Source: an uncultured bacterium (lineage in GTDB: Bacteria > Bacillota_I > Bacilli_A > RFN20 > CAG-826). Taken from it: a DNA stretch of 64,000 nt. Shown piece by piece: positions 1,390 to 32,397 of the stretch. The stretch covers positions 1,082 to 65,081 of the forward strand of contig CASFCL010000001.1 of assembly GCA_949293255.1 (NCBI GenBank), in the 5' to 3' direction. The notes under the pieces were generated by a model. The model saw only the letters and a list, made by a program, of their open reading frames with translations, was not told where the DNA came from and did no database searches. Each line of letters begins with the position of its first letter. The first letter of the stretch is position 1. The position numbers and the translations under genes are program-made.

Positions 1390-1408
1390 ATATTTACGGG
1401 GGTTAACG

Positions 1409-2077
1409 ATGTTTAGTGAAGATTTTACAAAACTTTCAGGTTCAGACCAAACTAGATTTGCAGAAGTCTGTAATAAATTATTATTAAAAGGATTTGTTGT
1501 CCGAGAATTTTATGATCCTCGTGAAAAAACAATGAGAAATAGCCAAGATTACAAATTTATTGAAAGATATTTTGATATTTTTGAAAACTATTTAAAGTTT
1601 AGCGGATGGACTTTAAAAAGAGATGAAAATCTCGGTGTTTACGCACTTTTTAACGATTATGAAGATAATAGAATTAGAATAGATAGAGAAGCTTCTGTTA
1701 TTTTAGTAACCTTAAGAAAAATTTATGATGATCAAAGACAAGAAAATCAAACATCTGCACAAAGTGGTCAAGCAATTTATCTCACAACAAACGGACTGAT
1801 TGGAGCTATGAAAATTTATGGTATTTTCATGCCAGGAAAAAGACTTACAGGTAGACTTGTAGGAAAATCTTTACGTTTCCTTGCTAACCACAACATTATT
1901 GCAAAAGTAAGTGGTAGTTATGATGAAGGTAATGTTAACTTCTTCATTTTACCATCAATAGTTTATGCTCTTGATAATGATAAAGTCGTTGCAATGAGTA
2001 ACGCACTTGATGAATTAAGAGCTAAAGAAAAAGAAAATCAAGGAGGACTTGTAAATGAAGACGCTTACCAAGGTTAA
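1409..2077 (+). CDS. MukE/JetB(MksE)-like small subunit (222 aa)
   Basis: Acidic 222-aa protein sandwiched between the kleisin-like ORF and the SMC-like ATPase. Its 3' end overlaps the ATPase start by 23 nt (translational coupling). Size and position fit DUF4194/MukE-like subunits; no motif proof. Confidence 0.4.
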   Translation: MFSEDFTKLSGSDQTRFAEVCNKLLLKGFVVREFYDPREKTMRNSQDYKFIERYFDIFENYLKFSGWTLKRDENLGVYALFNDYEDNRIRIDREASVILVTLRKIYDDQRQENQTSAQSGQAIYLTTNGLIGAMKIYGIFMPGKRLTGRLVGKSLRFLANHNIIAKVSGSYDEGNVNFFILPSIVYALDNDKVVAMSNALDELRAKEKENQGGLVNEDAYQG

Positions 2078-5426: not shown

Positions 5427-5446
5427 TAATTTAAGGAGAAATTTTT

Positions 5447-6580
5447 ATGCCAAGAAAAGTTGTCGCGATGATTCTTGCTGGTGGTAAGGGCACCAGATTA
5501 AAAGCTTTAACCAAAAAAATTGCAAAACCTGCAGTTTATTTTGGTGGCAAATACAGAATCATTGATTTTTGCTTGTCCAACGTAGCAAATTCACAAATCG
5601 ATTGTGTTGGTGTTTTAACACAATACGAATCAGTCGTTTTAAACAATTACATCTCAAATGGTCAAATTTGGGGCTTTGATGGAGTCAATTCTACATGTGC
5701 TGCTTTACCTCCTCGTCAAACCGAAGAAGGTGCTAGCTGGTATAAAGGAACTGCCGATGCAATCGCACAAAATATTGATTTCTTAGATGATGAAGAACCA
5801 GAATATGTTTTAATTTTAAGTGGTGATCATATCTATAAAACAACCTATACAGATATGATTAATCTTCATATCAAAACAAAAGCAAGCTGTACAATTTCTG
5901 TTATGGAAGTTGATTGGAAAGAAGCTTCAAGATTCGGTATCTTAGAAGTCGATACAAAAGACAACATTACAAAATTCGTTGAAAAACCAAAAGAACCAAA
6001 ATCAAATTTAGCTTCAATGGGTGTTTATGTATTCACCTATAAAGATTTAAGAAAAGCATTAGTAGAAGATATGAAAAATCCAAATTCATCTCATGACTTT
6101 GGTAAAGATATCATCCCAACAATGTTAAAAGAAAACAAAAAGTTAGTTGCTTATAGATTTAGTGGATATTGGAGAGATGTCGGTACTTTAGAAAGTTTAC
6201 ATACCGCAAATATGGAACTTTTGCCTTCAAGAAGAACCGAAGAAACCATTCATTTTGATGAATATCCAATTATTTATAGTGAAGATACACATTCTCTTCC
6301 TCAATATATTGGAAAAGAAGCAGCAGTTAAAGATTCTTTAATCAACCAAGGTGCTCAAATCTATGGTAGTGTTGAAGAATCAGTTATTTCAAATGAAGTT
6401 GTTGTTATGCCAGGAGCAGTTGTTAAAAATTCTGTCATCATGCCAGGAGTTAAAATTGGTAGAGATGCAGTCGTTACAAATGCAATTATTGGTCCAAACA
6501 CTGTAATTAACGATAAAGAAGTCGTTAATAAAACAGAAAGTGAAATTGTTTTAATCGATAAAGAAAGGAGCCTTCAATAA
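5447..6580 (+). CDS. glgC: glucose-1-phosphate adenylyltransferase catalytic subunit
   Basis: N-terminus AMILAGGKGTRLKALTKKIAKPAVYFGGKYRIIDFCLSNVANS is the canonical GlgC nucleotide-binding region. C-terminal left-handed beta-helix repeats are present. RBS AAGGAG upstream. Confidence 0.9.
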   Translation: MPRKVVAMILAGGKGTRLKALTKKIAKPAVYFGGKYRIIDFCLSNVANSQIDCVGVLTQYESVVLNNYISNGQIWGFDGVNSTCAALPPRQTEEGASWYKGTADAIAQNIDFLDDEEPEYVLILSGDHIYKTTYTDMINLHIKTKASCTISVMEVDWKEASRFGILEVDTKDNITKFVEKPKEPKSNLASMGVYVFTYKDLRKALVEDMKNPNSSHDFGKDIIPTMLKENKKLVAYRFSGYWRDVGTLESLHTANMELLPSRRTEETIHFDEYPIIYSEDTHSLPQYIGKEAAVKDSLINQGAQIYGSVEESVISNEVVVMPGAVVKNSVIMPGVKIGRDAVVTNAIIGPNTVINDKEVVNKTESEIVLIDKERSLQ

Positions 6581-7701
6581 TGAATAATGTCTTAGCTTTA
6601 GTCGATCTTCATAATTCAAAGAAAATCGATGTATTAACTGAACAAAGAGAACTTGCTTCAACTACATTTTTAGCAAGATATGCCTTTATTGATTACGCTC
6701 TTTCAAACTTAATCAATAGTGGTATCGATGATATTTCAATTTTAGCAAGAAGCAACTTTAGAAGTATTTCAAAACATTTAGGTCCAGTTTCAACCTATTT
6801 AAAAAACACAAAAACAGGTTTCTTAAATGTTTTAATGAACGAAAAGGCAATTCCTTCTCCTCAATTCAATACAGATGTTCATAATCTTCAAGAAAATGAC
6901 TACATCTTATATGATTCAAATTGTAAATATGTATTAATTACCCCAGTTCACTTTGTTTATAAAATTGATTTCCAAAAAGTAATTGATGAACACGCTGCTA
7001 GTGGTAAAGTCATCTCAGTACTTTATGGTACAACAAATGAACCAAGTGAATATGCTGGATGTCATAAAATTGTTGTCGATGCAATCGGAAATGCTCAAAA
7101 ATTTGATGTAATTTCTGAAGATGACAAAAATAAAGAAGTTAATGTTTCTTTAGAAACATATGTCGTAAATATGGAATTTTTAAAAGACATTCTTCGTAGA
7201 GCAAAAGATATTTCTGAATTATTCTCACTTGATGAATTATTTAGATATATTGCTCATTATGAAAACGATATGAACTGTATCAAACATGATGGATATTTTA
7301 GATGTTTTGATAGCTTAGCAAAATATTATAAATATTCCTTTGAAATCATGGACTATAAAAATGGTGCAGATAAGATCTTCTCAACCGATAATTTACTTCT
7401 TACAACAACCCACAATTCTAGACCAGTTTTATATGGTAAGAATGCTGATGTAAGACAATCTATCGTTGCTAATGGATCAACAATCAATGGTAAAGTTAGA
7501 CATTCAATTTTATCTAGAGACGTTGTCATTGAAGAAGGTGCTTCAGTAGAAGATTGTATTTTATTTACCCATACAGTTGTTAAAAAAGGTGTCCATCTTA
7601 GAAACGTTGTCGCTGATAAGAGATGTGTTTTTGAAACCAAGGAAAATGTTAGCGGAACCAAAGATGAACCACTTTATGTAAAAAGAGGAGCAATTATTTA
7701 A
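6580..7701 (+). CDS. glgD: glucose-1-phosphate adenylyltransferase regulatory subunit GlgD (Firmicute type)
   Basis: GlgC-paralog fold lacking the GGxGxRL loop, placed between glgC and glgA as in Bacilli. TAATG stop/start overlap with glgC. Confidence 0.8.
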   Translation: MNNVLALVDLHNSKKIDVLTEQRELASTTFLARYAFIDYALSNLINSGIDDISILARSNFRSISKHLGPVSTYLKNTKTGFLNVLMNEKAIPSPQFNTDVHNLQENDYILYDSNCKYVLITPVHFVYKIDFQKVIDEHAASGKVISVLYGTTNEPSEYAGCHKIVVDAIGNAQKFDVISEDDKNKEVNVSLETYVVNMEFLKDILRRAKDISELFSLDELFRYIAHYENDMNCIKHDGYFRCFDSLAKYYKYSFEIMDYKNGADKIFSTDNLLLTTTHNSRPVLYGKNADVRQSIVANGSTINGKVRHSILSRDVVIEEGASVEDCILFTHTVVKKGVHLRNVVADKRCVFETKENVSGTKDEPLYVKRGAII

Positions 7702-9143
7702 TGAAAATTTTAATGGCTAGTGGCGAATGTTTGCCATTTTCAAAAACTGGTGGACTTGGTGATGTTGCTTATTCTTTAAGTAAAGAATTTGCCAAAAAAA
7801 GACACGCAGTTTCAGTTATTACTCCTTTATATTCATCCATCAAACTTGAAAAATTCCCACCTTTAGAAAAGGTTTGTGATATGACAGTTAAGATGAACTG
7901 GAGAAATATCAAATGTTCAGTCTATACTGTAAAAGTTGATGGTATTAGTTATTATTTAGTAGATAATAAGTATTATTTCTATAGAGATTCCTTATATGGT
8001 TTTTATGATGATGGCGAAAGATTTGCTTTCTTTTCAAACGCTGTTATCGAATTTATGAAAACTATTAATAAGAAATTTGATATCGTTCATGTTCACGATT
8101 GGCAAGTTGGTATGATTCCATGTTTACTTAAAGTAAAATATTGGAATGATGACTATTTAAAAAATGTAAAAACAGTTTTAACAATTCATAACCCACTTTT
8201 TAAAGGTTATTTCTCAAGTGGTAGTTTATATGACTTATATGAATTAGATATAAGTTTATATAACAACGGAAGTGTTAGACTTGATAACCAAGTTTCAACA
8301 TTAAAAGCTGCTATTAAATTTGCTGATAAAATTACAACAGTCTCTCCAACTCATGCTTATGAACTTACAACTGTTGAAGGTTCGATGGGTTTATGGTATG
8401 ACTTAACTTTAAGAAAAGATGATTTTGTCGGTATTTTAAATGGTATGGATTATGGTGAATTTGATCCATCAAAAGATCCTCGAATTGTTAAAAATTTCGA
8501 TGTCACTAACTTTAAAGAAAATAAAAAAGTAAATAAAATTGCTTTCTGTAAAGAACATGGATTAGATCCAAACTTACCACTTTATGCAGTAGTTTCTAGA
8601 CTTACTGATCAAAAAGGTCTCGATTTAATATTTGCAATGAGCGATTTCTTAACTTATGCCGGTGGAAATTTTGCTGTTTTAGGAAGTGGAGAAAAATACG
8701 CTGAAGATTATTTCAATGATTTATATAAGAGAAATCCAAATCACACATATGTTTATATTGGATATAGTGATCAAATTGCTCACGAATTATATGCCGCAAG
8801 TGATTTCTTCATTATGCCATCCAAATTTGAACCATGTGGATTAGGTCAAATGGTTGCTCATACATATGGAAGTTTACCAATTGTTAGAGAAACCGGCGGA
8901 TTAAAAGATAGCGTTATCGGATATGATTTCATTTATGGAACCAATAAAGATAAAGCTGATGGATTCTCATTCTATGACCATAATCCTCAAGTTGCAGTAA
9001 GAGTTATTGGTGAAACACTTAATTTATATAATAAAGATCAAGAAACATTCCATAAATTAGTGGAAAACGCCATGAAATGCGATCATTCCTGGAATCAATC
9101 TGCAAAAGAATATTTAAAACTTTATAATTCAATTCTTAAATAG
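7701..9143 (+). CDS. glgA: glycogen synthase (ADP-glucose type)
   Basis: N-terminus MKILMASGECLPFSKTGGLGDVAYSLSKEF (KTGGL motif) plus GT-B C-terminal half. TAATG overlap with glgD. Confidence 0.9.
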   Translation: MKILMASGECLPFSKTGGLGDVAYSLSKEFAKKRHAVSVITPLYSSIKLEKFPPLEKVCDMTVKMNWRNIKCSVYTVKVDGISYYLVDNKYYFYRDSLYGFYDDGERFAFFSNAVIEFMKTINKKFDIVHVHDWQVGMIPCLLKVKYWNDDYLKNVKTVLTIHNPLFKGYFSSGSLYDLYELDISLYNNGSVRLDNQVSTLKAAIKFADKITTVSPTHAYELTTVEGSMGLWYDLTLRKDDFVGILNGMDYGEFDPSKDPRIVKNFDVTNFKENKKVNKIAFCKEHGLDPNLPLYAVVSRLTDQKGLDLIFAMSDFLTYAGGNFAVLGSGEKYAEDYFNDLYKRNPNHTYVYIGYSDQIAHELYAASDFFIMPSKFEPCGLGQMVAHTYGSLPIVRETGGLKDSVIGYDFIYGTNKDKADGFSFYDHNPQVAVRVIGETLNLYNKDQETFHKLVENAMKCDHSWNQSAKEYLKLYNSILK

Positions 9144-20202: not shown

Positions 20203-21996
20203 ATGGAAAAGAAGAAACAAGCTTGGAGGGCATTTATAGTTGGACTTATCTTTGTCCTATTAACTGTAGCTGCTGCTCTATTAGTCTTCGTCGATTTAGG
20301 CGAAGCACTTCGTTTAGTCTGCATTTCAGAAAGTCGTTACTTACTTCCAGTTGATGGATTAGTTGGCGTTTTTGATATGTGGTTTTTCGGTTGGTTTGAA
20401 AATTATTCTCCAACCCACATTTTAGGCTTTAGCCTTTTTGCATTAGTTGCTGTTATCAGCATCGTAATGGTCGTTGTCATGTGTGTAAAAAGAAAGGGCA
20501 AAGTTGCAGCATATGGAATTGCTTCAATTGTCATGATGTTTGCTCTTTTATTTGCCGCAAGTATCGTTTTAGAAATTAATACAGTTTCTGGCTATTATTT
20601 CGATACATATTTAATTGATGCACTTACATTTAGTGCAGTTGGTGATGTTATCGTTGATGTATTTGATAGTGTTAAAGTTCTTGTATTTGCTGTCTTAGCT
20701 TTAGTTGCAGTTATTTGTGTTATCGCTTTAGAAATCGTTCTTATGATAGAACCAAAAGCAGTTAGAGAACCAAAAGCAGTTAAAGAAGAACCAAAACCAG
20801 TTGAACCATCAGCTGAAGTCAAAGATGAAGGAGTCGAAGAAGTTAAAGAAGAACCAAAGAGAAAGGTTATCTTAACTGTAAAAAGATTCGATATATACGC
20901 AAATTCAAATAATATTGTTGAAAAAGAAACAAATTATCCAAAAGAAAATATCGAAGTAAAAGCACTCTCAACAGAAGACATTCGTGCAGTTTTACGCGAT
21001 GAACTTGAAAGAAGAGAATTAGCATCTCGTGCTTTAGATCCATATAGATATGAAGAAAGAAGATGCGAACAAAAACGTGTTAATAATGAACCAGATTGCT
21101 GCTGTGTTGATGCTAAAAAAGAAGAAGAGGTAAAAGAAGTACCAACACCAGTTATCGTTACAATTCCTACTCCAATTAAAAAAGAAGAAGAAAAGCCTGT
21201 CGAAAAAGAAAAGAAAGGTTTAACAAAAGAAGATGTTCAAAACATCATTAAAGAAGAATTAGCTGCTGCTTTAGAAGAATTCAAAAAAGAAGCTAAACCA
21301 GCTCCTAAAAAAGAACCAAGAACAATCGTTGTTAGAGTTCCTAGACAAGTAGTCACTCAAACAGTTGTCCAAAAAGAAGTTGTAAAAGAAGAAGCTAAAG
21401 CTGAACCAGCTCCAGCTCCTGTTGCTGAGCCAGTTAAAGAAGAAAAACCAGCTTCAGCTCCAAAAGCTGAACCTGTTAAAGAAGAAGTTAAAGCTGAACC
21501 AACACCAGCACCAGTCGCTAGTGAAGAAGCTCCAGCTGAAGAAGGTGTAGCAAAAGTTGAAAGAGTTCCATTCTCAACCAGAATGAAAGAAGCTGCTCCA
21601 GAACTTAGAGAACATTACAACAACTTAAAATCATTATTAAAATCCTATGGATTAAATAACAGAGTTGCTAATGGTGGTGATACATTTAGACTTCACCGTG
21701 TAACATACTGTAAGATCACAATTGCAGGAAAAGCATTAAAACTCTACCTTGCGTTAGATCCAAATGATTATAAAGACACCACATTACCTATCAAAGATAG
21801 TAGTGGTAAAGCAGTTTATAAAGATATTCCACTCGTATTCAAAGTTAAGAGTGATTTATCCTATCGTAGAGCTGAACAATTAATTACTGACTGTATGGAA
21901 AAACATGGACTTGAACAAATCGATCAAGTCAAAGTCGAAGATTGGGCAAGCAGACTCGATGAAGAAATGGCTGCCGGTGATGATAGTGAAGATTAA
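20203..21996 (+). CDS. multi-pass membrane protein with E/K/P/V/A-rich disordered linker and conserved C-terminal domain (paralog 1)
   Basis: AAGGGGG RBS. About 4 N-terminal TM helices. Residues ~185-455 are low-complexity (PKAVREPKAVKEEPKPVEP..AEPAPAPVAEPVKEE). C-terminal ~140 aa are clearly homologous to the C-terminus of the next gene. Confidence 0.7.
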   Translation: MEKKKQAWRAFIVGLIFVLLTVAAALLVFVDLGEALRLVCISESRYLLPVDGLVGVFDMWFFGWFENYSPTHILGFSLFALVAVISIVMVVVMCVKRKGKVAAYGIASIVMMFALLFAASIVLEINTVSGYYFDTYLIDALTFSAVGDVIVDVFDSVKVLVFAVLALVAVICVIALEIVLMIEPKAVREPKAVKEEPKPVEPSAEVKDEGVEEVKEEPKRKVILTVKRFDIYANSNNIVEKETNYPKENIEVKALSTEDIRAVLRDELERRELASRALDPYRYEERRCEQKRVNNEPDCCCVDAKKEEEVKEVPTPVIVTIPTPIKKEEEKPVEKEKKGLTKEDVQNIIKEELAAALEEFKKEAKPAPKKEPRTIVVRVPRQVVTQTVVQKEVVKEEAKAEPAPAPVAEPVKEEKPASAPKAEPVKEEVKAEPTPAPVASEEAPAEEGVAKVERVPFSTRMKEAAPELREHYNNLKSLLKSYGLNNRVANGGDTFRLHRVTYCKITIAGKALKLYLALDPNDYKDTTLPIKDSSGKAVYKDIPLVFKVKSDLSYRRAEQLITDCMEKHGLEQIDQVKVEDWASRLDEEMAAGDDSED

Positions 21997-22013: not shown

Positions 22014-24176
22014 ATGGAACAAACTAGAAGATTTAGAAAAGGTTTCATGGCAAAATGGTACATCATTGGTATTGTTTCCATTCTTGTCTGTTTATTCGTT
22101 TTATCCGTTACATTTATTGGTAGTGTCGCAGGATTAATTCCTGGACTTGGTGATTATAGTGCATCAATTCCTGGTGCCTATCCATTTGCAGGTGTTACTG
22201 AAGCAGTAAAGACTACACTTAAATCAATCCCATCATATTTCAGGGGTATTGAAAATGTTACCAATTGGGTTCCATTTGCAGCTCAAATGGGTGCATGGGT
22301 TATAGCATTCTTCGTTGTTGTTTATTTCTTTGCACATGTCATTACCTTTATTGCAAAAAGAAAATGGTCATATTTCATTCATAGTATTCTTGCTTTATGT
22401 ATGGTTTCTGGCCTTGTTGGAATTTATTTCTCATCATCTTATGTTTTAAGTGGTTATCAAACCAGTGAAGTTATCACTAATGGTGGTAATGTTACATATT
22501 TATATGTTAGAAGTCTTTTCTTAACAGGATTTGAAGGAACCATCGATTGGACAAGTACAAATGTTTGGATGTGTGTAATTTATTGGGCATTAGCAGTTAT
22601 CTTTGTAGTTGCTTTAATCCTTGCTGTTGTTTCCGTCTTTGCAGTTTCATCATATCCATGCAACTTTGCTAGAAAATATGTTAAAGGCAAAGCAAAAGAA
22701 GCAAAAGATAAGAAAGCCGAAGAAGAAGGTAGATATGGATATGGTCCAGAAGGTATGCAAGCCATTCCAGCAAATGGACAAGGTGTCTATGTTAATACCG
22801 GAAATGCAACTCCTTACGTTGTTCAATATTTCTATGGAAATCAACCAGCTGCTCCTGCAGCCGCTCCAGCAGAACCAGTTAAAGAAGCTGAAAAAGCTCC
22901 TGTAGCTGAAGCAAAACCTGGTTTAACAAAAGAAGACTTAAAAGAAGTTTTAAGTGAATTAATGGCAAAAAAAGAAGAAGATGAAAAAGCCAAAGCAGCT
23001 GCTTTAGCAGTCGCAGCACCTATTGCTGTTCCTGCACCAGCACCAGCACCAGCTCCAGTTGTTGAAGAAAAAGTTGATCCAGTCGAAGTTGCTCTTGAAG
23101 AAATTGAAAAACATTTCGATTTAGTCGATTATGAAGATGTAAAAACTTTCATTGCAGGTGAAGTTGATAAAGCCGCTCAAGAAGCTATTAGACAACTTGA
23201 AAAGCAAAGAGAAGAATTAGAAAAAGCAAAAGCTGCTGAAACAAAAGAAGAAGCAACAGTTGCTTATAAAGAAGAAAAACCAGTAGTCCAAGAAGAAAAA
23301 CCAGCACCAGTTGAAGAAGCTGTTAAAGTAGTTACTCCAATTGTTGTTGCTGTTCCTAGCGACTATCCTAGAGAAGCAAAAGCTCCAGTTGAAGAAGTTG
23401 AAGAAGTTAATGAAGAAGATATTAGATCATTAATTAAAGATGAAATTAGAAGTGCTTTTACTTCATTAAAAGAAGAAGCTCCTGAAGAAGAATGTGGAGA
23501 AGAAGCCGATGATATTCATATTGAATATGTTTATGAAGATGAATATGTTGAAGCTGCTCCAGTTGTAGAAGAAGTAGTTAAAGAAGAACCAGCTCCAGTT
23601 GCTGAACCTGTTAAAGAAGAAGCACCTGTAGTTGAAGAAAAACCTGTTGAAGTTGCTCCAGTTGTAGAAGAAGTTAAACCTTCTCCAGCTCCAAAAAGAG
23701 TTATTCCTCAAAAAGAAGTTAGAGGAAAAGAAGAAGCAATTGAAAAAGGTGAAATCGTTAAATTAGCATTCGATGAAAGAATGGTCAATGCTGAAGATGA
23801 TATTAAAGCTGCTTATCAATCATTAAAATCATTATTATTATCTTATGGATTAAATAGCCGTGTATCATCAACTGGCGATACATTTAGATTATCCAAAAAG
23901 ACATACTGCAAAGTTACATGCAGTGGTCAAGCATTAAAGATTTATCTTGCCTTAGATCCAAAATCATATGCAAATAGTGCAATTCCTGTAAATGATTCAT
24001 CTACAAAAGAAGCCTATAAGCAAATTCCATTAGGATTTAGAGTCAAATCGGATTTATCTTTAAGAAGAGCGAGAGATTTAATCATCGATTGCATGAACCA
24101 AAACGATCTTGTTCCAAATAAAGAATTTGTCGAAGAAGATTACGTTAAAGCTTTAAAAGACAATTTAAAGAAATAG
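22014..24176 (+). CDS. multi-pass membrane protein with E/K/P/V/A-rich disordered linker and conserved C-terminal domain (paralog 2)
   Basis: GGAGG RBS. About 5 N-terminal TM helices. Long acidic/Pro-Ala-rich linker. C-terminus (QSLKSLLLSYGLNSRVSSTGDTFRLSKKTYCKVTCSGQALKIYLALDPK..FRVKSDLSLRRARDLIIDCM) aligns with the paralog-1 C-terminus (NNLKSLLKSYGLNNRVANGGDTFRLHRVTYCKITIAGKALKLYLALDPN..FKVKSDLSYRRAEQLITDCM). Confidence 0.7.
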   Translation: MEQTRRFRKGFMAKWYIIGIVSILVCLFVLSVTFIGSVAGLIPGLGDYSASIPGAYPFAGVTEAVKTTLKSIPSYFRGIENVTNWVPFAAQMGAWVIAFFVVVYFFAHVITFIAKRKWSYFIHSILALCMVSGLVGIYFSSSYVLSGYQTSEVITNGGNVTYLYVRSLFLTGFEGTIDWTSTNVWMCVIYWALAVIFVVALILAVVSVFAVSSYPCNFARKYVKGKAKEAKDKKAEEEGRYGYGPEGMQAIPANGQGVYVNTGNATPYVVQYFYGNQPAAPAAAPAEPVKEAEKAPVAEAKPGLTKEDLKEVLSELMAKKEEDEKAKAAALAVAAPIAVPAPAPAPAPVVEEKVDPVEVALEEIEKHFDLVDYEDVKTFIAGEVDKAAQEAIRQLEKQREELEKAKAAETKEEATVAYKEEKPVVQEEKPAPVEEAVKVVTPIVVAVPSDYPREAKAPVEEVEEVNEEDIRSLIKDEIRSAFTSLKEEAPEEECGEEADDIHIEYVYEDEYVEAAPVVEEVVKEEPAPVAEPVKEEAPVVEEKPVEVAPVVEEVKPSPAPKRVIPQKEVRGKEEAIEKGEIVKLAFDERMVNAEDDIKAAYQSLKSLLLSYGLNSRVSSTGDTFRLSKKTYCKVTCSGQALKIYLALDPKSYANSAIPVNDSSTKEAYKQIPLGFRVKSDLSLRRARDLIIDCMNQNDLVPNKEFVEEDYVKALKDNLKK

Positions 24177-25462: not shown

Positions 25463-25555
25463 AAAAATATAATAAATCAAAAAAAATTAAAAAAATATAA
25501 AAAAGTTTGGTAAATTTTTGAAATTGCGACAATCTTGTTAGTAAAGGAGGAAAAA

Positions 25556-26635
25556 ATGAACTTTAAAATTTTAACTTTAATTTCTTTACTAACTATACCA
25601 TCTCTTGTTAATTCAAATGTCCCCACCCCTAAATCTGCATACAACTTTGAATTTATAACAAATGATACAAATTATGGTGGTCCTGATTTTTTAGATATTA
25701 GCGATTTTACTTTCAATAAAGATTCTTTTACAAATTATGGATTCGAATTGAAAATGGGTCTTCAAAGTCGATTTGTATATGGAACTATTTATTGTGATGT
25801 AGAAGTCGATAATGGATTAAACGAACATTATGATAAGAATACTACGCCATCTTTAGGTTTCTCAATTAATGCTAGAGATATAGTGCCGTTTCCAAAAGAA
25901 TATAGATTCTTAATTAATGGTACAATTTTTAAAGGACTAACCACATTTAAAGTAAATTTTGCTTTTAATTCAATGACTTCCTCCTTTTCATTTCATTTAA
26001 ATTCATATTACGATACAAGAATTCTTTTAGAAGAACCAGAAGGAAGAATTTATTATGAAGTTACCTATCAAAATTCAACAATTACTGAAAAATATGAGAC
26101 AATTTCAATTTTAGGAATCGATAAAGAGATGCATTTTGATCTTTATCGAAATGTTCCATTTTATGATTATATTTTCAATTACAGACTTTATGATAGTTCA
26201 AAATTTACGAATCGAATATTTTATTATGTTTATGATAAAGATAAATTATTGAGCAAAATTTTAAATTTATCACCAACTGAAGCTGATAATCATCGCGGCT
26301 TGGTTTTAGAAAAATTTAATGAAACTGATTCATCTTTTCAAGTTAGAACAGCAACTCAATTTTATTTAAATCCAAAAGATTATACGTTATCAAAATATTA
26401 TAAAGATGATCATCGACATAAAGTTAGAACAATGTATTTTCCTAAAGAATATTACGATGTTTTTTATGATACAACACACTATTTTGAGTTCGAAAAGTTC
26501 GGAAATTATCGAAAAAATGTCTACTTTAAATTTAGAATCCATATGGAGAAAGTATTTATTGAAAATTGTTTTGAAGTAATTGGAGAAAATAAGAAAGTAG
26601 GAGACGAAATTAGCTCAGAGGAGGTAATTTTATGA
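25556..26635 (+). CDS. secreted protein of unknown function (signal peptide; N/Y/F-rich)
   Basis: AAAGGAGG RBS 7 nt before the ATG at 25556. N-terminus MNFKILTLISLLTIPSLVNSNVP is a Sec signal peptide. No recognisable domain. Confidence 0.55.
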   Translation: MNFKILTLISLLTIPSLVNSNVPTPKSAYNFEFITNDTNYGGPDFLDISDFTFNKDSFTNYGFELKMGLQSRFVYGTIYCDVEVDNGLNEHYDKNTTPSLGFSINARDIVPFPKEYRFLINGTIFKGLTTFKVNFAFNSMTSSFSFHLNSYYDTRILLEEPEGRIYYEVTYQNSTITEKYETISILGIDKEMHFDLYRNVPFYDYIFNYRLYDSSKFTNRIFYYVYDKDKLLSKILNLSPTEADNHRGLVLEKFNETDSSFQVRTATQFYLNPKDYTLSKYYKDDHRHKVRTMYFPKEYYDVFYDTTHYFEFEKFGNYRKNVYFKFRIHMEKVFIENCFEVIGENKKVGDEISSEEVIL

Positions 26636-27039
26636 ACGTAGGAGTGGTACTTTTTTCATCAGGATTCATGATTTCTTTTTTAACTTTCTTTACGATTTCA
26701 ATTAAAGGAATGGGAGTTAATAGAATCATCAATAATATACCGTTAAGTGTTATAGAAAATTCAGTAATTTTTAATGGTGAAAATGATAATTTAAATGGTT
26801 ACTTTGATAAAGAAGTATTGGAATCAAATACAAAAAATTATTTAAATACTGCCTTAAAAGATAAGGTTCCAAGGTACAAAATTAGTTTTTTATATTTTTA
26901 CACGGATGAAGAAAATCAAATAAAGTTAGATCTGACAGATTACCCTGAAAGTGTACAAATTCATGTTTCAACTTGTTATTTTCAAAGTTATGAATGTCAA
27001 AGTTATTTAACGTTTTATATAGGAGAATTATTGGTATGA
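26632..27039 (+). CDS. small membrane-anchored protein (N-terminal TM), unknown function
   Basis: ATGA overlap with the upstream gene; single N-terminal hydrophobic helix; 135 aa. Confidence 0.45.
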   Translation: MNVGVVLFSSGFMISFLTFFTISIKGMGVNRIINNIPLSVIENSVIFNGENDNLNGYFDKEVLESNTKNYLNTALKDKVPRYKISFLYFYTDEENQIKLDLTDYPESVQIHVSTCYFQSYECQSYLTFYIGELLV

Positions 27040-28088
27040 ACGAAAATATTGTAGAATTTGTAGAATCATCATTTTTAAAACCGCTTTTAGAAATACCAAA
27101 TATAACAGATGTTTCATATAACGGAAGCGATATTTACTATGTAACAAATGATTACGGTAGGCAAAAATATCCTCAAAAAATAGAAGAAAAAATCATTTAT
27201 GATTTTTTAAGACAAATAGTGAATTTAACTGATAGTCAGTTTTCATTTTCTAAACCAATTTTAGATGTAAGTATTGGTCGATATCGTTTTAATGCGACTC
27301 ATTTTGCTATGACAAGAAAATTTAGAGAAAAAGCTATAAATTTCTCATTAAGAATTGGCTATGATGGGGTAAGAATTCATGAAGATGATGGATTTATTAA
27401 TAAAAAATGTCTTAAATTAGTCGATTTATTTATAAATAATAAGTTATCAATTGTTATTGGAGGAAAAACTGGATGTGGTAAGACTGAATTCCAAAAGTTT
27501 TTGATTTCAAGATTGAAAGATAATAGTAGAGTCATTGTAATTGATAATTTAAATGAAATTGAAAATGATGAATTTAAACCTAATTTAGATATTCAAACAT
27601 GGGTTGTAAATGAAATGCATGAAGGTTTTACTTTCGATAATTTCATTAAAAATGCTTTAAGATCTCATCCAGATTGGATTGTTTTATCAGAATCTAGAGG
27701 AAAAGAAATGTTAAGTATTTTAAATAGTGCAATGTCAGGGCATCCAACAATTACAACATTGCATACTAAAGACTGTAAATCAATTTATTCTAGAATGGCT
27801 AGAATGTGTTTACAAAGTGGTGATAATTTAAAGTATAAAGAAGTTTTAGAAGATATTTTTGAACATTTTAAATTAGCTATTTATGTAGCAAGAAGTGAAG
27901 ATGTAGAAACTGGTAAAATAACCCGTTACATCGAATCAATTTCAACTAATTATAAGGGTGTAATTACACTAATTTATACCTATCCAAATAAATATAAAAG
28001 GTTACCAAAACAATTTTTAGATATTTTAAATTTAACGTCAACTGAAAAATCTTTATTTAATCAGGAGTGGGTAAATGAAGAAAAATAA
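27036..28088 (+). CDS. TadA/CpaF/VirB11-family secretion ATPase
   Basis: Walker A IVIGGKTGCGKTEF, Asp box VIVIDNLNEIE, ESRGKEM (GE.RG.E box) and His box GHPTITTLHT. ATG at 27036 overlaps the upstream stop (ATGA) and is preceded by AGGAGA. Confidence 0.75.
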   Translation: MNENIVEFVESSFLKPLLEIPNITDVSYNGSDIYYVTNDYGRQKYPQKIEEKIIYDFLRQIVNLTDSQFSFSKPILDVSIGRYRFNATHFAMTRKFREKAINFSLRIGYDGVRIHEDDGFINKKCLKLVDLFINNKLSIVIGGKTGCGKTEFQKFLISRLKDNSRVIVIDNLNEIENDEFKPNLDIQTWVVNEMHEGFTFDNFIKNALRSHPDWIVLSESRGKEMLSILNSAMSGHPTITTLHTKDCKSIYSRMARMCLQSGDNLKYKEVLEDIFEHFKLAIYVARSEDVETGKITRYIESISTNYKGVITLIYTYPNKYKRLPKQFLDILNLTSTEKSLFNQEWVNEEK

Positions 28089-28863
28089 CGTCAGTTTAAT
28101 CATATATTTCATTATTAGTTTAGTTATATCGGTTTTATTTTGGTATGTAACAAACGATTTAATCTTAGCTCTAGTACTTTTTGTTATAGCAATTGCTGTT
28201 CATATGTTTATTTTTAAAAAGGAAAAAGAGTCTAGTTTAGTGATTTCTAGAGCAAAAGAAGCAATAACATTTATCAATAATTTTATTATCACTTTAAGTA
28301 TTAAAAAGAATGTTTTATCTACTTTTAAAAGTGTCAGTGAATCTTTTTCTGATACCTTAAAACAACAAGTAGAGCTAATTGATCACCTTAATGTTGATGA
28401 AAAAATTGTTTATTTAGCGAAATATTTTAAAGTTGATATCTATAAAGTATTCTTAAAAATTATCGACCAATATAATTTCAATGGTGGAGATATTTTAAAT
28501 ATTTCGCAATTATTAATGTATGATAGTCGAAAAATTGATGAATCAATCAATGAATATACATATGTAAGTAGAAGAAAACTGATTGAATTTATTTCATTAT
28601 GGGCATTAACGTTTTCTGTTTTAATCATATTAAAAGTGGCTCTTGGTGATTTTTTCGACCAAATTGTTAGTATGGATTTTTTTGCAATTTCAATCTTTGG
28701 TTTCAATTTAGTGTTCTTATTATCTTATTACTTATTTATGGCTAAATTTTTCAATATTAATTATATAAAAGGAGAATTTAAAGATGACGAAAAAGCTCAA
28801 AAACTTAATAAACGAAGTTGGCTTAAGTTACAAAAACGAGATCTCAAAACTAATTGCGATTAA
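28075..28863 (+). CDS. TadB/TadC-like platform membrane protein (single T2SS-F-like domain)
   Basis: N-terminal TM pair, about 130-aa cytoplasmic helical domain, then C-terminal TM helices. This is the half-size GspF architecture typical of TadB/TadC. Start overlaps the ATPase stop. Confidence 0.5.
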   Translation: MKKNNVSLIIYFIISLVISVLFWYVTNDLILALVLFVIAIAVHMFIFKKEKESSLVISRAKEAITFINNFIITLSIKKNVLSTFKSVSESFSDTLKQQVELIDHLNVDEKIVYLAKYFKVDIYKVFLKIIDQYNFNGGDILNISQLLMYDSRKIDESINEYTYVSRRKLIEFISLWALTFSVLIILKVALGDFFDQIVSMDFFAISIFGFNLVFLLSYYLFMAKFFNINYIKGEFKDDEKAQKLNKRSWLKLQKRDLKTNCD

Positions 28864-29458
28864 TTTATTATTCCTTTTAGCAATCGCTAGTATAGTCTTA
28901 TTCTTTTACAATTTATTACTTGTAATTGTTATTGTCTTTTTAGCAGTAGTTTTTGATTATCGGTATTTTTATCGATATTCACAAATGAAAGAGAAGATTA
29001 GAGAGAAACAAATTGACGAATTTATCGAGATATTTTCATATTTTAGAATTTATGTAAGTAATAACGAAAATGTATATACAGCTTTAAAAAATATATTACA
29101 GTTTGCATCTTATAATACAAAAGAAAGATTACAAACTTTGATCAACGAAATTGATGAAGATAAAAGCTTAGCCCCATTTGTTAAATTTTCAGATTATTAT
29201 AAAAATAAAACAATAGAAGAAGTAATGGTTTCTTTATATGAGATGATTTGTGAAGGAAATGAGTTAATCTACCTAAATCAATTTATTAGAGTATTTGAGG
29301 AATTTAAAACTCAAAGAAATAATGATAGTAAAACTAAACGATATAAGGTTTTTGATTATCTAACTTTGTTTAGTTTAGGAGGTAGCGGAATATTAATGAT
29401 AATTCTTGTTTTTGGAATTATTAATTTATTAGGAGATATGAATTTTAATGGGTTCTAA
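28784..29458 (+). CDS. second TadB/TadC-like platform membrane protein
   Basis: Same TM, helical domain, TM layout (224 aa). Its ORF overlaps the previous one by 80 nt in another frame. Confidence 0.45.
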   Translation: MTKKLKNLINEVGLSYKNEISKLIAINLLFLLAIASIVLFFYNLLLVIVIVFLAVVFDYRYFYRYSQMKEKIREKQIDEFIEIFSYFRIYVSNNENVYTALKNILQFASYNTKERLQTLINEIDEDKSLAPFVKFSDYYKNKTIEEVMVSLYEMICEGNELIYLNQFIRVFEEFKTQRNNDSKTKRYKVFDYLTLFSLGGSGILMIILVFGIINLLGDMNFNGF

Positions 29459-29792
29459 AATTGGATTAATTTTATCAGTATTTTTCTTATTTATCGTATT
29501 TTTATTTGGAGCAGATTTAATTTGTATTCAACTTAATTATGCTTCGATGGATTCAATGACAACATTAATCAGTTATAACATTTCAAAAAATGGAAAAATT
29601 ACTGATTCGTTGAAGACCTATGTAAAAAATAATATTGGTGCAGATCTTTATAGCGCAAGCTCTGAAGACAAAATATATCAAACTGGCGATTCTTTTGAAT
29701 ACTACCTAAAAAAGAATTACGAGCCATTAGTTATAAGTGAGTCTATGGAACTTACAATAAAAAGATATGCAGTAATAAAAATTTATAATTAA
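29448..29792 (+). CDS. small N-terminal-TM protein (possible TadE-like pseudopilin)
   Basis: 114 aa; hydrophobic N-terminus MGSKIGLILSVFFLFIVFLFG then a soluble domain. Overlaps the upstream gene by 11 nt. Confidence 0.35.
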   Translation: MGSKIGLILSVFFLFIVFLFGADLICIQLNYASMDSMTTLISYNISKNGKITDSLKTYVKNNIGADLYSASSEDKIYQTGDSFEYYLKKNYEPLVISESMELTIKRYAVIKIYN

Positions 29793-29807
29793 AGGAGGAT
29801 TTAAAAA

Positions 29808-29993
29808 ATGTCAGAAATTAAAGGTCAATTATTAGGAGTAGTATTAGTTGTTGCTATTTTTGGAGCAATTGGAGGCTTATTATATGCCGCTTTTCAAAAC
29901 GCTGCCAAATCAACAGCAAGCAAAATTGAAGAAACTCCAACATATTCAATGTCAGAATATAGTGTCAGCAATAGTGACTTATTAAGATATTAA
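29808..29993 (+). CDS. 61-aa pilin-like protein (Flp-size; charged N-terminus + hydrophobic helix)
   Basis: AAAGGAGG RBS. MSEIKGQLLGVVLVVAIFGAIGGLLYAAFQNAAKSTASKI has a short polar leader ending in Gly, a 20-aa hydrophobic helix, then a short polar tail. Last gene before the terminator. Confidence 0.4.
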   Translation: MSEIKGQLLGVVLVVAIFGAIGGLLYAAFQNAAKSTASKIEETPTYSMSEYSVSNSDLLRY

Positions 29994-30052
29994 TTTTTTA
30001 ATATTTTAGAAATTATTTAGTATAAAAATAGTAGTTTTCTCTATTATTTAAG

Positions 30053-30087
30053 AACAAAAAAAGACCATTTATACAAATGGTCTTTTG
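30053..30087. terminator. bidirectional rho-independent terminator (strongest for the minus-strand tRNA transcript)
   Basis: 10-bp stem aagaccattt/aaatggtctt with a 4-nt loop. Flanked by an A-run on one side and TTTT on the other. Confidence 0.6.
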
Positions 30088-30096
30088 CGTTTAACT

Positions 30097-30173
30097 TGGT
30101 GACCTATACGGGATTCGAACCCATGAATGCATGCGTGAAAGGCATGTGAGTTAAGCCACTTCTCCAATAGGCC
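30097..30173 (-). tRNA. tRNA-Glu (anticodon TTC)
   Basis: Reverse complement reads GGCCTAT..CATGC-CTTTCAC-GCATG..GGGTTCGAATCCCGTATAGGTCACCA. It has a 7-bp acceptor stem, TTC anticodon in a 7-nt loop, GTTCGAATC T-loop and encoded CCA. Confidence 0.85.
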
Positions 30174-30178
30174 AAGTT

Positions 30179-30253
30179 TGGCGCTGACTATAGGACTCGA
30201 ACCTACAACCGATCGGTTAACAGCCGATTGCTCTACCATTGAGCTAAGTCAGC
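30179..30253 (-). tRNA. tRNA-Asn (anticodon GTT)
   Basis: Reverse complement reads GCTGACTTAGCTCAATGGTAGAGCAATCGG-CTGTTAA-CCGAT..GGTTCGAGTCCTATAGTCAGCGCCA. It has a 7-bp acceptor stem, GTT anticodon and encoded CCA. Confidence 0.85.
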
Positions 30254-30274
30254 GTTTCCAAAAAGCGCTTAAAT

Positions 30275-30303
30275 AATATACCTAATTAAACTTTTAAAAG
30301 CAA
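30275..30303 (-). promoter_or_regulatory. candidate sigma-A promoter for the tRNA-Asn/Glu pair
   Basis: On the minus strand: TTGCTT, 17-nt spacer, TATATT, located 22 nt upstream of the tRNA-Asn 5' end. Confidence 0.35.
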
Positions 30304-30328
30304 GTATAAATTAATAAAATTTATAAAA

Positions 30329-30553
30329 TTAATCTAACTTTTTGGAGATTAGGTCAAGAAGACTACCAACAGTTTTTAAGTCTTTGGTTTCTTCTGCTGA
30401 GAATGTAACATCGTATTTGTCTTCTAAGTCTAAAATAAATTCAACTACATCGAGTGAATCTAAGCCATAATCAGCTAAAGTTGCATCTCTATTTATTTCT
30501 GAAATATTAAGTTTTGTTTTAATTAAATTTTCAATTTCTTCAAGTTTATTCAT
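30329..30553 (-). CDS. acpP: acyl carrier protein
   Basis: 74 aa; LADYGLDSLDVVEFILDLE contains the DSL phosphopantetheine attachment serine motif; acidic. Confidence 0.85.
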   Translation of the reverse strand: MNKLEEIENLIKTKLNISEINRDATLADYGLDSLDVVEFILDLEDKYDVTFSAEETKDLKTVGSLLDLISKKLD

Positions 30554-30650
30554 AAAAAACTCCTCGGAGAAATTTTAACATATATTTAATTAAAAAGTAA
30601 TAAAAATACTAAAAATGGTTGTGATATAATTTTAAGCGGAGGTGCAATTT

Positions 30651-31952
30651 ATGATTGATCATAAAATGGAACTTAATTCTGAACAAATTGAAATTTTAGA
30701 AGGCAAACAAGGTGAGACAATGCGTAAAATGCTCGAGACATTAGTCTTATTTGGAGATATTTTTGACGCAAAACGTTTAGTTAAAGTAACACATAGTGAA
30801 GGACATCTTGTAACATCTTTTGGAATTCCTTTATTAAAACCTCTTTTCAAAACAATGGAAGAGATTAATAAAGATGGTATTAAAGCAGAAGGTGGATTTA
30901 CATTAGATCCAAGACCTATTGATTACGAAAATGTTAAATGTAATATATTAGAAAAAATTGTTTTCAATAAAATCTTATATGGAAAACAAAAAGACTATGA
31001 AGAACAACTTTTAAAAGCTGGTTTAACTGATAGTGATAGTTTTTCATGTACATGTTATTTAAAACAATGTGGCAATAGACCAAATAAAGGTGACATTCTT
31101 TCATGGGCAGAATCAAGTGCAGTTGTTTTTGCAAATTCTGTTTTAGGTGCAAGATGCAACAGAAATAGCGGAATGCTTGATTTATTTGGTTCAATTATCG
31201 GATATGTACCTGAATTTGGTTTACTTTTAGATGAAAATAGAAAAGCTGATTGGGTAATTGAAGTAAAAACAACAAAAATTCCAGAAGCACAAATTTTAGG
31301 AAGTGCAATTGGGTTAAAAGTAATGGAAGATGTTCCATACATCGTAGGTTTAGATAAATTTATCGGAACTGAATTAGATGATAATGCTGAAGATTATTTA
31401 AAAGATATGGGCGCAGCAAGTGCTAGTAATGGAGCAGTTGGTTTATTCCATGTCGAAAATTTAACTCCTGAAGCAAAAGAGCAAGGTAAGTCATTAATTA
31501 AAGAAAATGCAAAACATTATGTAATTGATGATGCTGAACTTGAAAGAGTTTATAAATCTTATCCAAATATGTGGAAGAAAAAAGATGCAAAACCAAGATT
31601 ATGTTTTATTGGTTGCCCACATCTTTCATTAAATCAATTAATATTATGGCACAATAGAATCATTAACGGACTTAAAGAAGAAAATAAAAAGAAAGTTTCC
31701 TGCCAATGTGTTCTTACAACAGCTCCAAAGGTAAAGAAAGAATTTATAGCAAAATATCCAGAATTATTTAATGATTTAGACAAAGCTGGAGTAAAAATTG
31801 CTTCAATTTGTCCATTAATGTATACAAATAATCCATTAGTTCATGGAAAAGCAATTTTTACAAATTCAAATAAATTAAGAACTTACTCAATGGCAAGATA
31901 TTTTAAAGATGAAGATATTGTAAAACTTTTCTGTGGTAAGGAGGTCAAATAG
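30651..31952 (+). CDS. aconitase-X-like (DUF521-type) hydro-lyase large subunit, Cys-rich
   Basis: About 433 aa from the ATG at 30651 (GGAGG RBS 9 nt upstream). More than 10 Cys, including FSCTCYLKQCG and CFIGCPH. Followed by a ~147-aa partner ORF with 4-nt spacing. Two-subunit layout and sizes fit AcnX large/small subunits. The assignment is from memory of family patterns, not a search. Confidence 0.4.
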   Translation: MIDHKMELNSEQIEILEGKQGETMRKMLETLVLFGDIFDAKRLVKVTHSEGHLVTSFGIPLLKPLFKTMEEINKDGIKAEGGFTLDPRPIDYENVKCNILEKIVFNKILYGKQKDYEEQLLKAGLTDSDSFSCTCYLKQCGNRPNKGDILSWAESSAVVFANSVLGARCNRNSGMLDLFGSIIGYVPEFGLLLDENRKADWVIEVKTTKIPEAQILGSAIGLKVMEDVPYIVGLDKFIGTELDDNAEDYLKDMGAASASNGAVGLFHVENLTPEAKEQGKSLIKENAKHYVIDDAELERVYKSYPNMWKKKDAKPRLCFIGCPHLSLNQLILWHNRIINGLKEENKKKVSCQCVLTTAPKVKKEFIAKYPELFNDLDKAGVKIASICPLMYTNNPLVHGKAIFTNSNKLRTYSMARYFKDEDIVKLFCGKEVK

Positions 31953-31953
31953 T

Positions 31954-32397
31954 ATGAAGGAATATAAAGGTAGAGTTATTGCTAAAGGTTCATTTGTTGG
32001 TGAAGCATGTGTTTCTCATGGTGGATTCAATACTTTAGCAAGTTTCCAAAAATCAGCATTAATGAATAAGAAGAATGTTATTGTTAGCGATCAAAATAAC
32101 AAAGACTTATTTGGAGTTGATATTACTAACAAAATATTATGTTTACCTATTACAATTGGTTCAACAACTGGTGGACTTGTAATTCAGACTGTTTGTGACA
32201 TGAAAATTAATCCAAAAGCCTTCTTATTTTCTGAAACTATCGATTCATTAGCTGCTAGTGGAATTGTTTTAGCAAAAGTTTGGCAAAACTCTGACGTAAT
32301 TTGTATTGATGAATTAGGTAAAGAGTTTTTAGATACTGTTAAAACTAACGATAAATTAGAAATTAAAGAAGATGGTACCGTCATTATTTTGGATTAA
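31954..32397 (+). CDS. aconitase-X-like small (swivel, DUF126-type) subunit
   Basis: AAGGAGG RBS. KGRVIAKGSFVGEACVSHGGFN and LCLPITIGSTTGGLVIQ with an ASGIVLA tail resemble the G.S.G..L..P...GST.G pattern of DUF126. The likely start is the ATG at 31954; the ORF-track start at 31933 is an upstream alternative. Confidence 0.4.
   Translation: MKEYKGRVIAKGSFVGEACVSHGGFNTLASFQKSALMNKKNVIVSDQNNKDLFGVDITNKILCLPITIGSTTGGLVIQTVCDMKINPKAFLFSETIDSLAASGIVLAKVWQNSDVICIDELGKEFLDTVKTNDKLEIKEDGTVIILD

Follow-up and report, generated by a model that had tools for sequence, protein, structure and literature searches.

A core operon of uncultured gut Bacilli is collinear with genes 36-41 of the conjugative plasmid pLS20 and may encode a highly divergent, Tad-like type IV filament machine

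In the pLS20 family of Gram-positive conjugative plasmids, gene 37 has been annotated as a putative VirB11, while genes 36 and 38-41 are listed as 'Unknown' (PMC8557374). Together these six genes form a module encoding, in this order, a protein of ~126 amino acids (aa) with an N-terminal transmembrane (TM) helix, an ATPase, a ~268-aa protein that has TM helices at its two termini, its ~243-aa paralogue, a ~120-aa protein that some records annotate as DUF4320, and a ~47-aa TM protein. Here we describe an operon of seven genes, designated g1 to g7, located in a stretch of 64,000 nucleotides (nt) of contig CASFCL010000001.1, from an uncultured bacterium; this whole stretch is referred to as the window, and all positions are given in its coordinates. 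Genes g2 to g7 are collinear with pLS20 genes 36-41, with agreement in order, sizes and topologies, and by gene order and profile homology the operon is the chromosomal counterpart of the plasmid module. The interpretation we favour, with a probability of roughly 60%, is that this vertically inherited operon specifies a minimal machine of Tad-like build, highly divergent within the type IV filament superfamily.

The plasmid relatives were identified with the ATPase, the product of g3, in a tblastn search against 72,556 plasmids. The top-ranked plasmids are from Firmicutes and include the pLS20 family, pXO2/pAW63-type plasmids, Bacillus plasmids of the size of pXO1 and Listeria plasmids, whose ATPases are 27-33% identical across 81-91% of the query (E 1e-23 to 2e-37), with true VirB11, CpaF and TrbB sequences appearing lower in the ranking (E 1e-7 to 1e-18). 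Profile comparisons linked four of the six module genes with a reciprocal-best pattern, corresponding to the ATPase (E 2e-57), g4 and gene 38 (E 2.4e-6 over 224 columns), g5 and gene 39 (E 6e-8), and g6 and gene 40 (hhalign 94.5%, E 8e-8). The cross pairs between g4/g5 and genes 38/39 were worse, as expected if the duplication that gave g4 and g5 predates the split between the chromosomal and plasmid forms. Observed scores were 47-60, versus 12-16 and a maximum of 23 in column-shuffled controls (z-scores of 14-16), this being a lenient null for membrane proteins, for which unrelated pairs with N-terminal TM helices score 12-20.

In the plasmids, the module sits between an adhesin gene and the genes coding for the channel of their type IV secretion system (T4SS); VirB2-like and VirD4-like genes come after it. 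We found gene 38 on 272 plasmids, and 224 of these are classed by prediction as conjugative. Among the Bacillus, Listeria and Enterococcus plasmids analysed, all but B. pumilus pSHB9 have a large adhesin gene (Tie, thioester-domain or SpaA-like) ahead of the module, and in several of these plasmids a gene of the TrbC/VirB2 or CagC family was observed after it; the Enterococcus plasmids may belong to the broth-mating pMG1 family, which their record description does not name. A variant module was also observed at 2758-7745 of pJM1A, a Lactococcus cremoris plasmid that is non-mobilizable by prediction. There, an ATPase of 577 aa and the homologues of genes 38 and 39 are followed by a BspA leucine-rich-repeat surface protein, and no DUF4320-like gene is annotated. 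The papers on lactococcal conjugation that we considered concern a different system.

The chromosomal operon is conserved over a broad set of genomes. Relatives of the ATPase were found only in uncultured metagenome-assembled genomes labelled as Bacilli, Mollicutes, Candidatus Onthovivens, which NCBI places under Bacilli incertae sedis, or Candidatus Enteromonas; these genera may belong to the GTDB order RF39. A genome scan detected such relatives in 303 GTDB species-representative genomes when an alignment was used as query, while the single protein gave no match. Synteny was analyzed in a set of 80 loci obtained by tblastn and calling of open reading frames (ORFs). Among the 60 loci with sufficient flanking sequence, 55 have gmk upstream, on the other strand; acp is found downstream in 46 of 48, g4 to g6 follow the ATPase gene in 69 out of 69, and tRNA-Asn and tRNA-Glu genes come after acp in ~46 of the 52 loci scanned. 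The block formed by acp, tRNA-Asn and tRNA-Glu (30097-30553) is inverted with respect to the majority in the window and in some relatives (at least seven loci). Compared with the window, the ATPase shows a median identity of 49%, Gmk of 47% and Acp of 49%, so the locus has diverged in step with its neighbours. These data identify it as a vertically inherited core operon of an uncultured lineage of gut Bacilli, in which the two tRNA genes are conserved neighbours, neither a functional part of the operon nor an insertion site. Four contigs carrying the operon are binned as Lachnospiraceae, Parabacteroides goldsteinii, Slackia isoflavoniconvertens and Acutalibacteraceae, most likely as a result of bin contamination.

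The seven ORFs extend from 25535 to 29993 with no competing long ORFs, and their coordinates are given in Table 1. The g1/g2 and g2/g3 junctions, at 26632 and 27036, are ATGA overlaps, followed by overlaps of 14 nt at 28075, 80 nt at 28784 and 11 nt at 29448, and by a 15-nt gap between g6 and g7. A GGAG-type ribosome-binding site precedes all seven starts, with a strong Shine-Dalgarno (SD) sequence in the case of g7. The start of g1 is most likely the ATG at 25556 rather than the TTG at 25535, based on the SD sequence AAAGGAGG and on the public gene calls for identical contigs, which give 359 aa. For g3, the 350-aa form starting at 27036 has an exact match among public proteins, and a 364-aa form has none. 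Public calls for g5 give 157 aa; despite them, the 224-aa form was favoured given the lengths of its orthologs (219-224 aa) and the strong ribosome-binding site of its own ATG at 28784, and the gene is probably mis-called in the public annotations of this lineage. The hairpin at 30059-30086, which the terminator scan scores on the minus strand, is a probable bidirectional terminator marking the end of the operon. Scanning for promoters gave no information, with 39 sites in this AT-rich DNA versus 43 expected. A first-pass annotation, made from the sequence of this DNA, had described seven coupled plus-strand genes that include an ATPase with Walker A, Asp, GE.RG.E-type and His boxes, a 114-aa protein with an N-terminal TM helix and a 61-aa pilin-sized protein, together with a terminator ahead of two tRNA genes and no prepilin peptidase, TadZ or secretin in the locus. 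All these elements were confirmed, coordinates and junctions included, with the terminator as a probable one. It had also described g1 as a signal-peptide protein of 366 aa, of which the signal peptide holds but the length is corrected by the new start.

Table 1. Features of the operon and of its 3' border, in window coordinates.
Feature	Position	Strand	Basis
g1, predicted secreted protein, 359 aa	25556-26635	+	ORF, SD, public call, signal peptide
g2, predicted bitopic protein, 135 aa	26632-27039	+	ORF, TM prediction, orthologs
g3, T2SSE-superfamily secretion ATPase, 350 aa	27036-28088	+	PF00437, catalytic motifs
g4, membrane protein, 262 aa, TadB-like single-domain platform subunit	28075-28863	+	Topology, fold
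g5, membrane protein, 224 aa, TadC-like single-domain platform subunit	28784-29458	+	g4 paralogue
g6, DUF4320-like candidate minor pilin, 114 aa	29448-29792	+	Leader, hhalign to plasmid gene 40
g7, candidate major subunit, 61 aa	29808-29993	+	Leader motif, SD
12-bp hairpin	30059-30086	none	Between convergent g7 and tRNA genes
tRNA-Glu(UUC)	30097-30173	-	tRNA scan
tRNA-Asn(GUU)	30179-30253	-	tRNA scan

The g3 protein matches PF00437 (T2SSE, 6.6e-21). It contains the Walker A motif GGKTGCGKT (residues 142-150), the Asp box DNLNE at 170, and the motifs ESRGKE (219-224) and GHPTITTLH (235-243), and its Walker A, Asp, Walker B and His boxes are intact and invariant among orthologs. Models of individual families score it below their cutoffs, as is the case for the NCBIfam models of VirB11 (TIGR02788, 102 bits versus a cutoff of 250), TadA (TIGR03819, 85.5 versus 373) and PRK13900 (58 versus 389), and for the ComGA model (63 versus 300); a weak BasE match also appeared in the NCBIfam scan. 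In a profile search of the PDB the scores were 95.6 bits for the VirB11 protein HP0525, 89.8 for Archaeoglobus fulgidus GspE2 (2oap), 65 for CpaF and 58 for FlaI. Comparison with hhalign gave a score of 413 with plasmid gene 37, 215 with CpaF and 203 with proteobacterial VirB11. In a small neighbour-joining tree, the ATPases of the window lineage are sister to those of the Gram-positive plasmids, and both are split from CpaF plus VirB11 with 99% bootstrap. By its domain and motif content, g3 is an ATPase of the T2SSE superfamily, belonging to the VirB11/TadA/archaeal-type branch.

The products of g4 and g5 share a topology consisting of an N-terminal TM hairpin, a cytoplasmic helical domain of ~110 residues, and one or more C-terminal TM helices, with two TM helices at each end in the case of g4. 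They are paralogues (hhalign 94.9%, E 4e-8, 160 columns), and the top structural matches of their AlphaFold models correspond to the GspF/PilC cytoplasmic fold. Precomputed Pfam annotation is empty for every homologue of both proteins, and sequence-profile searches of the PDB with either of them returned chance matches only. A HMMER profile search with g4, run exhaustively against 1.84 billion representatives, retrieved only 291 clusters and did not reach the T2SSF family; as far as these searches indicate, the g4 family is narrow and unconnected to T2SSF by sequence. The match between the g4 and TadB profiles, the latter built with sequences of four annotated Tad loci, covers the full domain and agrees in topology but is weak (hhalign 53.9%, E 1.3e-4), with a score of 38.5 versus 20 or less in column-shuffled controls.

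The two small proteins encoded at the end of the operon are the best candidates for filament subunits. In g7, the N-terminus conforms to M[SGA]E[ILV]KG[QST] in 61 of 61 orthologs, Q being the residue in 59 of them. The window protein has the leader MSEIKG, followed by this Q, a stretch of ~23 uncharged residues and a variable tail, which in the orthologs often ends in LLx[FY]. The residue at position +5 is I, V, M or L in all 61 sequences and never E or D. None of them matches the Flp model and the Flp motif G/xxxxEY (E5/Y6) is absent; five gave weak matches to the archaeal Pilin_N model (best E 0.014) and UpsA gave one of 0.007, all of them sub-threshold. The product of g6 has a short xxKxG leader, conserved as xxK/NxG/A in 56 of 57 orthologs, then a TM helix that leads into a small extracytoplasmic domain, and TadF matched weakly five of these 57 sequences. 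No significant signal was obtained for g2 or g6 with the TadE profile. As judged from these motifs, the g6 and g7 leaders look like the very short class III leaders, unlike the Flp or ComGC motifs.

Upstream of the ATPase gene, g1 encodes a protein with a Sec-type signal peptide and without a lipobox Cys. A homologue with signal peptide is present in 56 of 56 loci, nearly always coupled to g2 and with a length of 325-390 aa, apart from a few truncated or mis-started calls. All 56 could be linked by an iterated hidden Markov model, although their pairwise identity is only 12-19%, a divergence according to which the g1 family evolves fast. No relative was found in Pfam or the PDB, including a Pfam/NCBIfam scan of every member of the alignment, nor did g1 resemble Ses, Tie, thioester adhesins or further plasmid proteins. 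The g2 protein, with orthologs in 61 loci, has an N-terminal TM helix that precedes ~100 aa of extracytoplasmic domain, and the Pfam/NCBIfam scan gave nothing above threshold for it; its relative position is that of plasmid gene 36.

A secretion ATPase, two half-platform paralogues with GspF fold and small proteins composed of a leader plus a helix, all in one coupled operon, lead us to propose a machine of the type IV filament superfamily. The Tad-specific sequence markers tested all fail, and we therefore place the system outside the Tad, ComG and VirB systems, as a divergent type IV filament variant. This modifies in part what the first-pass annotation had proposed. Its ATPase of the TadA/CpaF/VirB11 family is indeed a T2SSE ATPase, but falls below the TadA and VirB11 cutoffs and outside both the CpaF clade and proteobacterial VirB11. 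The two half-size GspF-like platform proteins are paralogous and have the GspF/PilC fold with flanking TM helices, but do not match T2SSF by sequence. As for the minimal type IVc-like apparatus, its ingredients (T2SSE ATPase, two platform paralogues and small helix proteins) were found, but the type IVc or Tad label could not be kept, with no Tad family match at curated thresholds and no E5/Y6.

According to our model, a hexamer of g3 would dock on the platform formed by g4 and g5, in an arrangement like that of TadB/TadC, and its ATP-driven rotation or pushing on the platform would extract subunits with N-terminal helices from the membrane. The major subunit would be g7, with g6 and perhaps g2 as minor subunits priming the polymer, and the stacked subunits would give rise to a short surface filament or pseudopilus. 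The g1 protein would most likely be an exposed, fast-evolving surface partner (adhesin, tip protein or cargo), and the likely role of the machine would be contact with host surfaces or other cells. Removal of the short leaders of g6 and g7 could be part of this process.

Several observations weigh against this interpretation. The curated models for T2SSF, Flp, TadE, TadA and ComG reach threshold for no gene of the operon, and only the generic T2SSE model does; in particular, neither g4 nor g5 matches T2SSF (PF00482) at E ≤ 1 or any other Pfam or NCBIfam model. A prepilin peptidase was not found in the locus, among the membrane proteins of the window, or in 1.06 Mb of flanking sequence from 83 loci, in a weak search over all ORFs of the window and of these loci that used two proteobacterial TadV seeds. 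Regarding the plasmid module, profile comparison gave no significant homology between g7 and gene 41 or between g2 and gene 36 (E 0.006 in the latter case), and the plasmid counterparts of g6 and g7 have no glycine ahead of the helix, so cleavage may not be a common feature of both forms. The ATPase tree has limited sampling and does not include archaeal, PilB/PilT or ComGA sequences. No filament has been reported for this lineage or for the plasmid module, for which the lead is computational, and our literature searches returned nothing on a Tad-like module in Gram-positive conjugative plasmids, on DUF4320, or on RF39 in combination with pilus, type IV, competence or ComEC. Moreover, Gram-positive conjugation systems are said to lack both pili and VirB11 (PMC12857230, PMC11730352, PMC8557374).

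The alternative that survives best, although we consider it unlikely, is that the same machine serves for DNA uptake, as a competence pseudopilus of the ComG type or like the Tad-dependent one of Micrococcus, perhaps for nucleotide scavenging. Competence pseudopili share the architecture of ATPase, platform and small pilins, a Tad/Flp system has been described that drives natural transformation in an actinobacterium (PMC4322843), and the nucleotide-salvage genes tk and gmk adjoin the operon in most relatives. However, this adjacency may be plain housekeeping synteny, the score of g3 with the ComGA model is far from its cutoff, g7 lacks an E5 of the ComGC type, and ComEA, ComEC and ComF were not found in the window. 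A fast-evolving secreted protein such as g1 also suits surface interaction better than DNA binding.

That the operon is a remnant or domesticated part of a conjugative T4SS, with g3 acting as a VirB11 together with T4SS components encoded elsewhere in DNA transfer, appears quite improbable. It is true that VirB11 provides the best curated matches of g3, both in NCBIfam and in the PDB, and that the closest annotated relatives are in conjugation operons, mostly on plasmids predicted to be conjugative. Nevertheless, the VirB11 score is less than half the cutoff, and g3 is equally far from VirB11 and CpaF, at about half its hhalign score with gene 37. Genes for VirB4, VirD4, VirB6, VirB8, a relaxase or VirB2-like proteins were not found in the 64-kb window, the flanks of the related loci not having been searched for T4SS genes, and the sole FtsK-like protein of the window has the alpha and gamma domains of FtsK, which corresponds to the chromosomal FtsK. 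The locus is fixed beside housekeeping genes, with conserved housekeeping synteny in the flanks of its relatives, and the GspF/PilC fold of the ATPase partners is a feature of type IV filament machines, not of T4SSs.

We see equally little probability in a machine without filament, in which a piston similar to that of the type II secretion system (T2SS) or the bindosome would export g1 or position it at the surface. The archaeal bindosome and T2SS pseudopili illustrate that such machines need not make long filaments, a Sec signal peptide is present in g1, whose gene is coupled to those of the machine, and in the plasmids, with the pSHB9 exception already mentioned, a large adhesin gene precedes the module. 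On the other hand, g1 carries its own Sec signal, in a monoderm or wall-less cell without outer membrane, and nothing physically ties it to g6 or g7. Both DNA uptake and g1 export differ from a divergent type IV filament machine for surface contact in the role assigned to it, not in the kind of machine.

The base composition of the locus bears on the remaining alternative, that of the first-pass annotation, which had seen here a horizontally acquired accessory island, more AT-rich than its surroundings and with more visible use of CGA, CGC and AGG Arg codons. Bulk GC is indeed lower in the locus (0.24-0.26 versus ~0.29, the latter being also the value of the window, ~29%), but GC at the third codon position (GC3) is not (0.177 versus 0.157, p=0.13); the difference resides in codon positions 1 and 2 (0.309 versus 0.360, p=0.005), and thus mirrors amino acid composition. 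The enrichment in CGA is real, with 11 of 49 Arg codons in the operon versus 16 of 654 elsewhere in the window, and a weaker trend in the same direction is found in the related loci (10.9% versus 6.1%); CGC and AGG are too few to judge. This excess may derive from low expression or translational tuning and, being explicable by weak expression, is not evidence of transfer. There is no integrase at the locus, and the direct repeats found there are chance pairs of AT-rich sequence, none of which duplicates the end of a tRNA gene. An island next to tRNA-Glu/tRNA-Asn, suggested by bulk GC, the CGA excess and tRNA adjacency, is thus extremely improbable in view of the recurrent arrangement of gmk, locus, acp and tRNA genes across relatives in 303 species genomes, the divergence equal to that of gmk and acp, the GC3 values and the lack of integrase and tRNA-end repeats. 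Recent acquisition of the locus is refuted by these data, and a conserved position with core-like composition is what the first-pass annotation had itself named as refuting an island; the locus may have been acquired long ago, at the base of the lineage. Prophage, integrative and conjugative element and toxin-antitoxin readings were also rejected, since genes of phages, an integrase or a relaxase are absent from the locus.

Elsewhere in the window, the ORFs scanned are housekeeping genes (glycogen genes, tRNA synthetase genes, tk, gmk, acp, nusA, infB, pnp and ftsK, among others), with the exception of a JetABC cluster. TadZ/CpaE and RcpC/CpaB were not found in the operon or among the window ORFs scanned with Pfam, which are about half of them. 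The JetABC cluster (184-5426) is of the Wadjet/Mks type and encodes JetA (PF18982, 292 bits), a protein of the MksE/DUF4194 type and JetC, which is SMC-like. JetD is absent after JetC, glgC beginning at 5447, and this could possibly be a JetD-less, condensin-like system. Two adjacent genes, at 20203-21996 and 22014-24176, encode paralogues of 597 and 720 aa without Pfam match, each with 5-6 N-terminal TM helices, a long linker rich in E, K, P, A and V, and a C-terminal domain; they are conserved upstream of tk in ~21 related loci. On the other side of the operon, genes for the large and small (swivel) subunits of aconitase X (30642-32397) adjoin the block of acp and tRNA genes.

If the interpretation as a type IV filament machine is extended to the plasmids, the operon, pLS20 genes 36-41 and their counterparts could tentatively be considered an unrecognised clade of such machines in Bacilli, with a VirB11/TadA-like motor, a platform split as in TadB/TadC and non-Flp subunits. 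The plasmid 'VirB11' would then be the motor of a pilus-like organelle for mating capture, the chromosomal form would be a core organelle for surface contact, and the system may use a short-leader pilin in the archaeal style together with a peptidase. Mating in liquid is the condition in which pili matter in Gram-negative systems. Efficient mating in liquid has been described for pLS20 (PMC8557374). Should the plasmid module build a filament, the statement that Gram-positive conjugation lacks VirB11 and pili would need to be revised.

The analysis provides a testable function for seven genes without specific annotation, six of them with no family match and the ATPase with a generic name, in an operon conserved in hundreds of species of uncultured gut Bacilli with reduced genomes. 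It also gives a run of genes so far listed as 'unknown' on pLS20, pXO2-type, Listeria and Enterococcus plasmids a new reading as a Tad-like module; some of these plasmids carry virulence or resistance genes. More generally, it illustrates how TadB/TadC-like and pilin-like proteins can drift past the reach of Pfam and HMMER and yet keep their fold and gene order. The plasmids that carry the homologous module are well studied, and its function is amenable to genetic testing in them.

Compared with the systems described to date, the operon resembles ComG of Bacilli in having a monoderm host and in a single operon that unites an ATPase, a platform and several pilin-like proteins of small size, with no secretin. 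However, ComGB is one two-domain protein, and ComGC, which depends on ComC, carries the F/E5 motif, whereas here the platform is split and there is no E or D at +5. Proteobacterial VirB11 is, like g3, a two-domain ATPase of ~330-350 aa and gives the highest single-family scores, but these remain under half the cutoff, the VirB partners were not found and both are separate in the tree. Archaeal type IV pili of the Epd/Aap/Ups type, with class III signal peptides, share with g7 a very short K-G leader, the lack of an acidic residue at +5 and the small size of the subunits. The Q of g7 at +1 may also be a feature of the EppA substrates of methanogens. The archaeal secretion ATPase 2oap scores with g3 nearly as high as VirB11, while the matches of a few g7 members to archaeal pilin, UpsA or archaellin models are sub-threshold and reflect only the hydrophobic helix. 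In addition, archaeal pili have a single FlaJ/TadC-like platform protein where the operon has two of half the size, and an archaeal-type peptidase was not found.

The similarity is greater with Tad/Flp (type IVc) systems, where an ATPase of the TadA/VirB11 branch is followed by a TadB/TadC-type pair, with pilin-sized subunits and other proteins with N-terminal helices, all of them in one coupled operon. Against this common build, T2SSF, Flp, TadE and TadA models are below threshold for the operon proteins, the Flp motif is missing, the ATPase is outside the CpaF clade in the small tree, g4 and g5 are ~70-90 aa shorter than the proteobacterial TadB/TadC proteins examined, and TadV, TadZ/CpaE and RcpC were not found with the operon. 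As for the pLS20-type module, it is mobile and lies within a conjugation operon with VirD4, VirB4, VirB6 and VirB2-like genes, whereas the window locus is chromosomal and core, with no T4SS genes found nearby. The plasmid ATPases are also longer than g3 (400-470 versus 350 aa), with an N-terminal extension, genes 40 and 41 have no K-(x)-G leader, unlike g6 and g7, and the g1 protein is unrelated to the plasmid Tie, Ses and thioester adhesins. Even so, the plasmid module is the system that matches the operon in the order, sizes and topologies of its genes, has the sister ATPases and, as is the case for g2 to g7, comes after a gene for a surface protein.

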